Below, in pieces: positions 8,236 to 11,147 of a stretch of DNA of 19,475 nucleotides (its first letter is position 1; each line of letters begins with the position of its first letter). Both the position numbers and the translations under genes were made by a program. The stretch is from a virus (Duplodnaviria; Heunggongvirae; Uroviricota; Caudoviricetes): the IMG/VR virus record IMGVR_UViG_2844449076_000008; one strand, written 5' to 3'. The notes under the pieces were generated by a model, which worked only from the letters and a program-made list of their open reading frames with translations, was not told where the DNA came from and searched no databases.

Positions 8236-8492
8236 CAGCGCAGCACCTCCTGCACCATTTTTTCAAACTTTCCAACTTTGGTTTCCAGCTCTGCCACACA
8301 ATCAACGAGCTCATCCACCGCTTTTTGTGCGCGATGTTTCGCCTGCATCAGTTCCCTGAGCGCTGGCACCATATCCCGACGAATGGCATCTTTTGTTACA
8401 CCTGTTTTTTCCAGTTGTTCCGCCTGTCGCAACATTTCCTGCGCGTGTTTACGCAATTGTTCAGAGGTAAAAGTCATTGTCTGGTTGTTCAA
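8235..8492 (-). CDS. hypothetical protein (predicted helical / coiled-coil), nin-region-like position
   Basis: 85-aa ORF translationally coupled on both sides (4-nt overlap with the helicase stop, 1-nt overlap with the rusA start). No motif recognised. Confidence 0.45.
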   Translation of the reverse strand: MNNQTMTFTSEQLRKHAQEMLRQAEQLEKTGVTKDAIRRDMVPALRELMQAKHRAQKAVDELVDCVAELETKVGKFEKMVQEVLR

Positions 8493-9651
8493 AAGAAACG
8501 CTCCATCTTACTGCTGTCGGTACGTGTATTGCTGTATCTGCGCGGCTGGGGCTGCCGCATTGGGGTGGAAAGAACCTGTGCGCTTTCCTGGTCCACAGGC
8601 AGAAAATGTCCGTTATAAAAACGCCGGTAAATCGTCCCCAGAGAACCGTTACGTTGTTTCGTGATATTAATTTCTGCTATGCCTGTAGCCTGTGTATCCG
8701 GGTTGTACACTTCATCCCTGTAAAGCATCAGAATGATGTCTGCATCCGCCTCTATTTCTCCGGAATTTTTCAGGTCTGAGTTCATGGGACGTTTATTGGG
8801 TCTGGACTCCACACCGCGGGAGAGCTGGCTCAGCGCAATCAACGGAAAACCACCGGATTTTGCCAGGCCTTTAAGCCCCTTTGAGATTTCACCCACGGCA
8901 AGGTCATGACGCCCCGTGGTTCGGGTTTTTATCAGCCCGAGATAATCAACCACCACCAGCGCCGTTTCCGGATGTTTAATCAGATGGTGTTTCGTTGTTG
9001 CGCATATCTCATCAATGGTCAGGTTCGCCTGGTCCACCATCCAGATATTGCGCCCGGTCATCCGCCCCACCCCTTGTGAGAAACGCGCCCAGTCTTCATC
9101 TTCAAAGTGAGCCACAGATTTCAGGCGTGATACTGGCATCCCTCCAGCCGCAGACACCATACGTTCACCAATCTGGATGTTCGCCATCTCCATGGTGAAC
9201 AGAAGCACACCATGCCCCTGCTCAGTCACCTTGTCGATGATGTCCAGCGCAAGTTCGGTTTTCCCCATCGAAGGACGGGCGGCAATGAATACCAGGTCTC
9301 CGGGCTCCATACCGCCTGTTTTTGCGTCCAGTTCATCAATACCGGTCATCAACGTCCTGGATTTCTCCAGCCCCTGATTCCGGCATTCAACACGCTCAAC
9401 CACTTCCGGAAGCACATCATCAATATGTACCGGCTGAATGACGCCCTTTCCTGTCGACAGTGTGACCATCATGTTCTGCGCATCCTTCAGGGCATCTTCA
9501 GCTGCTTCACAGGTATGCGCATCACGTAATTTCTGCAGCGCCTCATTCAGTGTTTTTTCTGCATCGCGCAGTGCGGCATTGCGCCGCAACGCTGCAACAT
9601 AGTGCTCCAGTGAAGACTTCACCCAGGTTTTACGCCCGGTATCAGTAATCA
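8489..9651 (-). pseudogene. DnaB-like replicative helicase, C-terminal 387-codon portion (gene interrupted by the IS600-like element)
   Basis: Walker A ARPSMGKT and Walker B VVVDYLGL present. The ORF 8489-9700 continues 16 codons into the IS terminal repeat, so its apparent N-terminus MPFYFRKECPLNSGYLM is IS-derived. Confidence 0.8.
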
Positions 9652-9715
9652 TGAGGTAGCCTGAGTTTAACGGACACTCCTTCCTGAAATAGAATGGCAT
9701 CAGAAGGAGCTAATA

Positions 9716-10018
9716 ATGAGCAGAAAAACCCAACGTTACTCTAAAGAGTTCAAAGCCGAAGCTGTCAGAACGGTTCTTGAAAATCAACTTTCGATCAGTG
9801 AAGGCGCTTCCCGATTATCTCTTCCTGAAGGCACTTTAGGACAATGGGTTACCGCCGCCAGAAAAGGGCTCGGTACTCCTGGTTCCCGCACGGTGGCTGA
9901 ACTGGAATCTGAAATTCTGCAACTACGTAAGGCGTTAAATGAAGCTCGCCTTGAGCGAGATATATTAAAAAAAGCAACAGCGTATTTTGCACAGGAGTCG
10001 CTGAAAAATACGCGTTAA
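9716..10018 (+). CDS. IS3-family transposase OrfA (helix-turn-helix / leucine zipper)
   Basis: 100 aa, MSRKTQRYSKEFKAEAVRTV..., RBS GGAG upstream; typical IS3-family orfA. Confidence 0.85.
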   Translation: MSRKTQRYSKEFKAEAVRTVLENQLSISEGASRLSLPEGTLGQWVTAARKGLGTPGSRTVAELESEILQLRKALNEARLERDILKKATAYFAQESLKNTR

Positions 10019-10053
10019 TCGAACAATGGCGACAACAATTTCCCATTGAAGCG

Positions 10054-10872
10054 ATGTGTCAGGTATTTGGTGTATCCAGGAGCGGTTATTACAACTGGGT
10101 ACAGCATGAACCCTCAGACAGAAAACAAAGTGATGAGCGGCTAAAACTGGAGATTAAGGTGGCACATATCCGCACTCGCGAAACATATGGAACCCGGCGG
10201 CTCCAGACGGAGCTGGCAGAGAATGGCATCATCGTTGGTCGTGACCGACTGGCACGTCTTCGTAAGGAGCTAAGGCTACGCTGTAAGCAGAAACGCAAGT
10301 TCAGAGCGACTACGAACTCGAACCACAATCTGCCAGTTGCGCCAAATCTGCTGAACCAGACGTTCGCTCCTACAGCACCAAATCAGGTCTGGGTGGCGGA
10401 CCTGACGTATGTTGCCACACAGGAGGGATGGTTGTACCTCGCTGGCATCAAAGATGTTTATACGTGCGAAATTGTCGGCTACGCCATGGGAGAGCGCATG
10501 ACAAAAGAGCTGACAGGTAAAGCCCTGTTTATGGCGCTCAGGAGCCAGCGCCCACCTGCCGGGCTAATCCACCACTCTGATCGAGGTTCACAGTACTGCG
10601 CATACGATTACCGGGTCATACAGGAGCAGTCTGGTCTGAAAACATCAATGTCGCGTAAAGGTAACTGTTACGACAACGCTCCGATGGAAAGCTTCTGGGG
10701 AACGCTGAAAAATGAGAGCCTGAGCCACTATCGTTTTAATAACCGGGATGAAGCCATCTCAGTAATACGGGAATACATTGAGATTTTCTACAATCGTCAG
10801 CGTCGTCACTCTCGTCTGGGGAATATCTCCCCGGCAGCCTTCAGGGAAAAATATCATCAGATGGCTGCTTAA
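10054..10872 (+). CDS. IS3-family transposase OrfB (DDE integrase domain; normally expressed as an OrfAB frameshift fusion)
   Basis: 272-aa ORF with DDE-type catalytic region (HSDRGSQY ... CYDNAPMESFWGTLK); the true orfB frame probably starts upstream, overlapping orfA. Confidence 0.85.
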   Translation: MCQVFGVSRSGYYNWVQHEPSDRKQSDERLKLEIKVAHIRTRETYGTRRLQTELAENGIIVGRDRLARLRKELRLRCKQKRKFRATTNSNHNLPVAPNLLNQTFAPTAPNQVWVADLTYVATQEGWLYLAGIKDVYTCEIVGYAMGERMTKELTGKALFMALRSQRPPAGLIHHSDRGSQYCAYDYRVIQEQSGLKTSMSRKGNCYDNAPMESFWGTLKNESLSHYRFNNRDEAISVIREYIEIFYNRQRRHSRLGNISPAAFREKYHQMAA

Positions 10873-10915
10873 AAAAAGAACAAATGGTAGTGTCCGCTAT
10901 TGCCAGTACACCTCA

Positions 10916-11147
10916 TCACCGGGGCAAGTTCCGGCATCTCATTACACAACAGCACGGGGTCAATCACTCCTGAAACACGGGCCTGTCTGCAGATGCCTGT
11001 GTAGATATCCCGATACGCTCGTACAGAAAAAATGTCCGCCGGTAGTGTGATCAGAATATCCATCACTTCATGATCTGCCCCACGCAGAAAGAATGCGCCA
11101 ATGACAGCGCCTTCCAGGTCATCATTACGCCAGACTGGTGTTGTCAT
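10916..11147 (-). pseudogene. DnaB-like helicase, N-terminal 77-codon portion (5' part of the IS-interrupted gene)
   Basis: ATG at 11145-11147 with GAGGTG RBS; MTTPVWRNDDLEGAVIGAFFLRGADHEVMDILITLPADIFSVRAYRDIYTGI... resembles the DnaB N-terminal domain. After removing the IS and one TCA copy, the reading frame is continuous with the 8489-9651 portion. Confidence 0.65.

Follow-up and report, generated by a model that had tools for sequence, protein, structure and literature searches.

A recent IS600 insertion in the helicase gene of a Shigella sonnei prophage remnant that also carries IS2 and IS4 lesions

Organization of the locus

The window, which here means the whole stretch of DNA that was analysed, is 19,475 nucleotides long and comes from the IMG/VR virus record IMGVR_UViG_2844449076_000008 (Caudoviricetes). 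Four insertion sequences, IS1, IS2, IS4 and IS600, all occur within these 19 kb. The features that bear on the IS600 insertion and its surroundings are the following, with the basis of each assignment in brackets.

1-18, minus strand: terminal bases of IS4 (divergence of the portal gene; IS4 transposase genes come next in related loci)
1-1160, minus strand: portal gene, 3' end cut by IS4 and 5' end divergent, the last phage late gene at the locus (alignment to the SfII portal)
8489-9651, minus strand: C-terminal fragment of the helicase gene, native codons 78-463 plus stop (translation; Pfam DnaB_C)
9649-9651, no strand: left copy of the target-site duplication, TCA (sequence; single copy at the empty site)
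9652-10915, plus strand: IS600, complete copy of 1264 bp, IS3 family (99.9% match; TG...CA ends)
9716-10018, plus strand: IS600 orfA, 100 aa, HTH_Tnp_1 (Pfam PF01527, 73.6 bits)
10054-10872, plus strand: IS600 orfB, 272 aa, DDE integrase core (Pfam rve/rve_3/rve_2/HTH_21)
10916-10918, no strand: right copy of the target-site duplication, TCA (sequence; single copy at the empty site)
10916-11147, minus strand: N-terminal fragment of the helicase gene, native codons 1-77 (translation; ATG at 11147)
11144-11251, minus strand: 3' remnant of a DnaC-like helicase-loader gene, 35 codons plus stop (C-terminus match to phiP27 L18)
11252-12582, minus strand: IS2, 1331 bp (ends and flanks; 99.6% to IS3-family (IS2) copies; ORF domains)
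12583-14075, minus strand: 5' part of the chromosomal autotransporter gene ypjA/ehaD, 3' end cut by IS2 (Pfam AIDA repeats)

The IS600 element and its target site

The element that interrupts the helicase gene is a complete IS600. Positions 1-1264 of the query aligned over their full length at 99.9% identity to many annotated copies (S. sonnei pINV invasion plasmids); the reference copies used for this comparison are records annotated 'IS3-like element IS600 family transposase'. IS600 starts with TGAGGTAGCC (from 9652; TGAGGT...) and finishes with GTACACCTCA (...ACCTCA at 10915). The ends have the form 5'-TG...CA-3' and form imperfect terminal inverted repeats, in which 19 of the 27 outermost positions are complementary. 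The element lies antisense to the helicase gene, with the C-terminal part of the gene adjoining its left end and the N-terminal part adjoining its right end.

IS600 features two open reading frames. The orfB product scores 334 bits against the NCBIfam model transpos_IS3, for which the cut-off is 160. The orfB frame is -1 relative to orfA and is open from 9955, and a slippery heptamer, A AAA AAA (A7), is located inside orfA at 9967-9973. From this arrangement, an OrfAB fusion of ~385 aa can be predicted to be made by the usual frameshift, and since the ORFs and ends are intact, it is plausible that this copy is active in transposition. The length of 1264 bp, the 99.9% identity, the TG...CA ends, the 3-bp target duplication, the helix-turn-helix orfA, the DDE/rve orfB in the -1 frame and the A7 slippery site are all as in IS600 of Shigella. 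Nothing substantial is different, and the insertion site alone is sublineage-specific.

A 3-bp repeat on its own is expected by chance once in 64 cases. However, in related genomes the empty site has the sequence ...CCCCGGTGATTACTGAT... and features one TCA only (TGA on the gene strand); because of this single copy, the TCA repeat that flanks IS600 is a true target-site duplication. A first-pass annotation of the window had described an IS600-like insertion at 9652-10915 between direct TCA repeats at 9649-9651 and 10916-10918. The element, the repeat and its origin by duplication are all borne out, and every coordinate that was given is correct.

The helicase gene

With IS600 in place, the gene consists of an N-terminal stub of 77 codons and, beyond the element, a C-terminal part of 386 codons, and as a result no full-length helicase can be made. 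The N-terminal ORF continues into the right end of IS600, where it reads 15 foreign codons before a stop, giving a product of 92 aa in total. The fragments, this 92-aa product among them, are named 'helicase [Shigella sonnei]' in their source records. The C-terminal ORF of 387 aa starts at a hybrid ATG at 9650-9652, in which one base is the last of the IS and the other two belong to the target, and its exact product is encoded in several NCBI S. sonnei assemblies. An exact protein look-up of a 403-aa ORF that starts inside IS600 returned no match; the 387-aa form is the one on record. Expression of an N-terminally truncated helicase from the hybrid ATG was considered and dropped, as a promoter scan of positions 9400-11400 gave nothing above the shuffled expectation that could drive the C-terminal fragment.

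When IS600 and one TCA were removed in silico, joining 8489-9651 to 10919-11147, the result was a minus-strand gene of 1392 nt that encodes 463 aa in frame, as had been proposed from the 77-codon N-terminal and 387-codon C-terminal parts. The restored protein aligns over 463/463 aa at 97% identity with 0 gaps to the phiP27 helicase L19 (NP_543071.1), an end-to-end match to an intact phage helicase, and it aligns over the same 463/463 aa, again at 97% identity with 0 gaps, to an E. coli prophage helicase. Conservation extends to the residues flanking the joint, APVITDTGRK, in both alignments. Compared as DNA, 24 phage records and 348 E. coli genomes match the restored sequence in a single stretch that spans the joint.

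The restored protein features a DnaB_C domain (PF03796, 245 bits, residues 177-422), and the Walker A (ARPSMGKT) and Walker B (LVVVDY) motifs are located in the C-terminal fragment. The DnaB N-terminal domain (PF00772) scores 22.3 bits, just below the Pfam cut-off of 23. Solved structures of E. coli DnaB align with residues 12-430. The NCBIfam model TIGR00665 (DnaB) aligns over residues 8-422 with 308 bits against a cut-off of 385, and TIGR03600 (phage_DnaB) gives 274 bits against a cut-off of 499. Because both scores fall below their cut-offs, the helicase is a family-level relative and not an equivalog. As judged from these domain scores, the restored product is a DnaB-family phage helicase, being neither an orthologue of host DnaB nor an equivalog of the TIGR03600 set.

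The closest point of comparison is phiP27, an Stx2e phage. Its L19 helicase shares with the restored protein the length of 463 aa, the gapless alignment and the DnaB_C ATPase domain, and phiP27 also shares the overlapping ATGA junction between the helicase gene and the upstream DnaC-like loader gene. In contrast to phiP27, the window has IS600 inside the helicase gene, and IS2 has left only 35 codons of the partner loader gene. The module downstream of the helicase is also unlike that of phiP27, as it features RusA, Q, an ant/C4 region and SfII-like packaging genes, with no stx.

Empty and occupied sites in S. sonnei

Genomes with an empty site were found through exact matches to a neighbouring 85-aa protein. 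The uninterrupted 463-aa gene is present in complete chromosomes, e.g. CP032523.1, CP022457.1, CP045526.1 and CP180008.1. In seven S. sonnei chromosomes (L012 and L014-L019) the uninterrupted gene shows 0/1392 nt differences from the restored one, and 9.6 kb of flanking sequence is 99.97-100% identical to the window. In three of them (L014, L015 and L016) window positions 1-9651 are 100% identical, and the two window segments on either side of IS600 abut with a 4-base overlap at the target site only. On the occupied side, assemblies that encode the 387-aa ORF match the window at >=99.9% over all 19.5 kb.

At least 1000 contigs with the name Shigella sonnei encode exactly the intact protein. 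For the split gene, 35 contigs encode the 387-aa form; a 386-aa partial with I78 as its first residue is encoded on 383 contigs, and 11 contigs carry a 77-aa partial whose last residue is V77. The partials that end at the junction are draft contigs broken at the repeated IS. The intact allele is thus the majority form, and the split forms occur on a few hundred contigs. These numbers also make it unlikely that the empty sites arose by precise excision of IS600. Precise excision is rare for IS3-family elements.

Assemblies are well known to go wrong at IS copies, and several long-read assemblies matching the window carry many small indels, both of which could be taken to favour a repeat-induced misjoin that placed IS600 inside the gene. 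However, identical junctions are shared by five independent chromosome-scale assemblies (L003-L006 and L011), hundreds of draft contigs carry proteins that end exactly at V77 or I78, and a perfect 3-bp duplication is a signature of transposition and not of misassembly. An assembly artefact is therefore extremely improbable.

We conclude that the insertion is genuine, inactivates the gene, took place recently and is polymorphic in S. sonnei. Its recency follows from the identical natural uninterrupted allele, the 100% identical 9.6-kb flank in three empty-site genomes and the polymorphism of the site. Both the recent date and the loss of an otherwise intact gene had been proposed from the window sequence, and the comparison with uninterrupted alleles upholds the two: the gene carries no other change, and its reading frame is split.

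The IS2 and IS4 junctions

Phage DNA homology upstream of the helicase ends at 11251. The remnant found there translates to the C-terminus of the phiP27 loader L18, a protein of 252 aa, and at the corresponding upstream position phiP27 has ~11 kb of early genes. IS2 begins at the next base. IS2 has no target-site duplication, with flanks of AACGC and GCAAC, and a one-piece match to the E. coli ypjA-ypjCB region at 97.7% begins exactly at 12583, on the other side of the element. The missing duplication and the flanking homology show that the phage remnant was joined to ypjA by a deletion or rearrangement, with IS2 at the junction. Judging from the alignment to phiP27, this event probably removed from the locus the rest of the loader gene together with genes for integration, immunity and initiation that span ~11 kb in phiP27. 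The missing prophage arms could instead have been relocated by an IS-mediated inversion and not deleted; the prophage is broken at this locus either way. A functional prophage would be expected to carry a complete integrase gene, immunity genes and a complete set of initiator, loader and helicase genes, a set that is incomplete here, where phage homology stops at 11251.

On the other side of the window, the alignment of the portal protein to the SfII portal ends at residue 380 of 413 and then diverges into IS4. The sequence past IS4 can be read in related loci. At locus L012 it continues with a 71-aa ORF that has no family match, followed by a ribosomal S30AE-family gene, and at locus L020 it continues with a BamE-family gene. 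Capsid and tail genes were not found past IS4 at the L012 or L020 locus, a result that applies to this locus only, and the complete head and tail genes of a functional prophage are accordingly lacking at the locus. The holin, endolysin, spanin, HNH, TerS and TerL genes are full-length ORFs in the window. The first-pass annotation had stated that the late and lysis genes stay intact. This holds for these six genes; it does not hold for the portal gene, which is cut by IS4, or for the capsid and tail genes, none of which follow the portal at the locus.

Order of events

The IS2 junction and the IS4-truncated portal gene are already present in the empty-site genomes. IS600 thus arrived last, after two or more earlier IS events, and because the empty-site genomes carry the same IS2 and IS4 lesions, the prophage was non-viable before IS600 arrived.

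This order bears on the reading with which the locus was first approached, namely that IS600 turned an otherwise competent prophage replication-defective while its late and lysis genes continued to work. The helicase gene is the sole gene of the window that is interrupted within its coding sequence and yet is otherwise perfectly intact, and the full-length lysis and terminase ORFs are also in keeping with that reading. However, the empty-site genomes already lack all but 35 codons of the loader and everything upstream of it, which is replaced by IS2; IS4 already cuts the portal at codon 380 of 413 in the same genomes, with non-phage genes next to it; and IS2, which has no target duplication, links phage DNA to the truncated ypjA. 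It is highly unlikely that IS600 disabled a live prophage, and the earlier claim that this insertion is what keeps the prophage replication-defective is not sustained, since the loader and portal genes were already truncated in genomes that have no IS600 at this site.

What is very likely is that IS600 recently entered a phiP27/SfII-like prophage remnant that had already been disabled by IS2 and IS4, and that the insertion was most likely neutral. IS3-family elements move by a copy-out/paste-in route, using an OrfAB transposase produced via -1 frameshifting. Presumably by such a route, IS600 transposed into codon 77/78 of the DnaB-family helicase gene of a lambdoid prophage remnant in the S. 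sonnei chromosome, duplicating the target TCA, and this event took place recently, within one S. sonnei sublineage. Earlier truncations associated with IS2 and IS4 had by then made the prophage non-functional. On one side the losses that preceded IS600 at this locus comprise the loader, initiator, immunity and integration genes, and on the other side the C-terminus of the portal and the capsid and tail genes. The insertion itself is most likely a neutral consequence of IS elements that continue to multiply in S. sonnei. In this account the IS identity and ends, the target duplication, the exact restoration of the gene, the polymorphism and the order of events follow directly from the sequences, and the transposition mechanism and the neutrality are inferred.

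Selection on the orphan helicase

The neutrality of the insertion can be weighed against adaptive loss, in which a loaderless orphan helicase beside an IS2 end would be expressed and costly, e.g. by interfering with host DnaB/DnaC, and its inactivation by IS600 would be selected, which would account for more than one hit in the gene. A protein of 146 aa from other S. sonnei isolates (P0152) represents an independent IS600 insertion at codon 140/141; it ends with ...VTLEVYWQ*, and EVYWQ* is the right end of IS600 in another frame. This second insertion could mean either that the gene is a large neutral target or that its loss is selected. Two contig-end partials, P0139 and P0157, overlap at codons 57-60 and hint at a third IS site. 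Convergent IS-mediated gene loss has been documented in Shigella (PMC7373316). With at least two independent IS600 sites and a possible third IS site in a 1.4-kb gene, the helicase, which has remained free of point mutations despite the loss of its loader, might be read as a protein that is expressed and harmful, or otherwise active, and subject to convergent inactivation by IS elements; we regard such convergence as improbable.

Several observations speak against selection. The intact allele is in the majority. Active IS copies number in the hundreds in S. sonnei, and over thousands of genomes more than one hit in 1.4 kb of dispensable DNA is to be expected by chance. Additionally, a scan of positions 9400-11400 gave no promoter-like signal for expression of the helicase: the sites found were no more than in shuffled sequence, and the only promoter-like site was the inward one that belongs to IS600 itself. 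Adaptive loss of the helicase is thus very unlikely, and a neutral insertion into an already broken prophage is the preferred reading.

Relation to genome decay in Shigella

Hawkey et al. (2020, PMC7373316) described the expansion of IS1, IS2, IS4, IS600 and IS911 in Shigella, and reported that S. sonnei has the greatest recent IS activity and strain-to-strain variation among Shigella. The decay described in that study has the same features as the locus described here: shared IS types, variable insertion sites, inactivation of genes and IS elements at deletion junctions. Prophages are not mentioned in that study; conceptually, however, nothing is different here. The insertion is a routine Shigella IS polymorphism, a case of ordinary genome decay of an already-known kind.

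The insertion is useful mainly as a marker of one S. sonnei sublineage, since its presence or absence is clean and can be dated. The locus also serves as an example of how IS1, IS2, IS4 and IS600 take a prophage apart stepwise, and it corrects the idea of a live phage disabled by a single IS, as the empty-site genomes show directly in what order the events occurred. The IS600/helicase locus features no new mechanism or family, and it has little importance beyond bookkeeping.

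Hybrid start codon and probable further insertions in the helicase gene

The IS600 insertion in the DnaB-family helicase gene creates a hybrid ATG at window 9650-9652 (- strand), which consists of the final base of IS600 and the TG of the target. This ATG is in frame with helicase codon 78 and gives the 387-aa ORF that is called by annotation pipelines. A scan of window 9400-11400 for a promoter-like site serving this ORF found none. Protein records of the same gene from other S. sonnei assemblies point to further insertions. The C-terminus of P0152 (...VTLEVYWQ*) is the right end of IS600 read in frame, which indicates that other S. 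sonnei isolates have an IS600 copy inserted independently at codon 140/141. P0139, which begins at R57, and P0157, which extends to G60, are contig-end partials of the helicase that overlap by four residues, and this overlap would fit a third IS site in the gene with a duplication of 9-12 bp.

IS elements elsewhere in the window

Insertion sequences and the associated tRNA gene
~1-18: IS4 end; the window starts inside this copy
11252-12582: IS2, full-length, 1331 bp, target-site duplication absent
16788-17556: IS1 copy 1, orientation opposite to copies 2 and 3
17601-17676: CAT-anticodon tRNA gene, between inverted IS1 copies
17987-18755: IS1 copy 2, direct repeat of copy 3
18763-19475: IS1 copy 3, direct repeat of copy 2

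The IS2 copy is flanked on one side by the last 35 codons of the phage DnaC-like loader gene and on the other by the chromosomal ypjA/ehaD, which is truncated at its 3' end. This position, together with the missing duplication, is what an IS-mediated deletion or recombination between two IS2 copies typically leaves behind, and the loader/ypjA junction is common to every related S. sonnei locus examined. The SfII-like portal gene (window 1-1160) is cut by IS4 at residue 380 of 413, its first ~25 residues are divergent as well, and its start is placed 72 codons late by gene callers. In some related genomes, the portal-truncating IS4 is itself split by IS2. At the other end of the window, only 7 bp separate IS1 copies 2 and 3, and the IS1 copy number at 16788-19475 varies among related S. 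sonnei genomes.

The chromosome-scale assemblies L003, L005, and L006 show 0-1 mismatches to the window and 7-19 gap openings, so that nearly all differences are small indels, which break up ypjCB, TerL, and IS genes. These indels look less like real variation than like homopolymer errors of long-read sequencing.

Small RNAs and tRNA genes

Rfam matches (all gathering-level, - strand)
7045-7128: sRNA-Xcc1
7262-7345: C4 antisense RNA
7371-7447: isrK
7408-7460: a1/b1 targets of C4 antisense RNA

The Q gene lies immediately upstream of these matches (7045-7460), and an ORF6N/Ant-like anti-repressor gene (6444-7205, - strand) follows them downstream. The C4 RNA/anti-repressor arrangement at 6444-7460 presumably resembles the immI (c4-ant) immunity module of phage P1. 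Four clustered tRNA genes (Gly-TCC, Thr-TGT, Arg-TCT, and one with a CAT anticodon; 5944-6254, - strand) separate the Q/ant region from the holin, and the annotation of the E. coli prophage L002 has a similar Ile/Arg/Thr/Gly cluster at the corresponding position.
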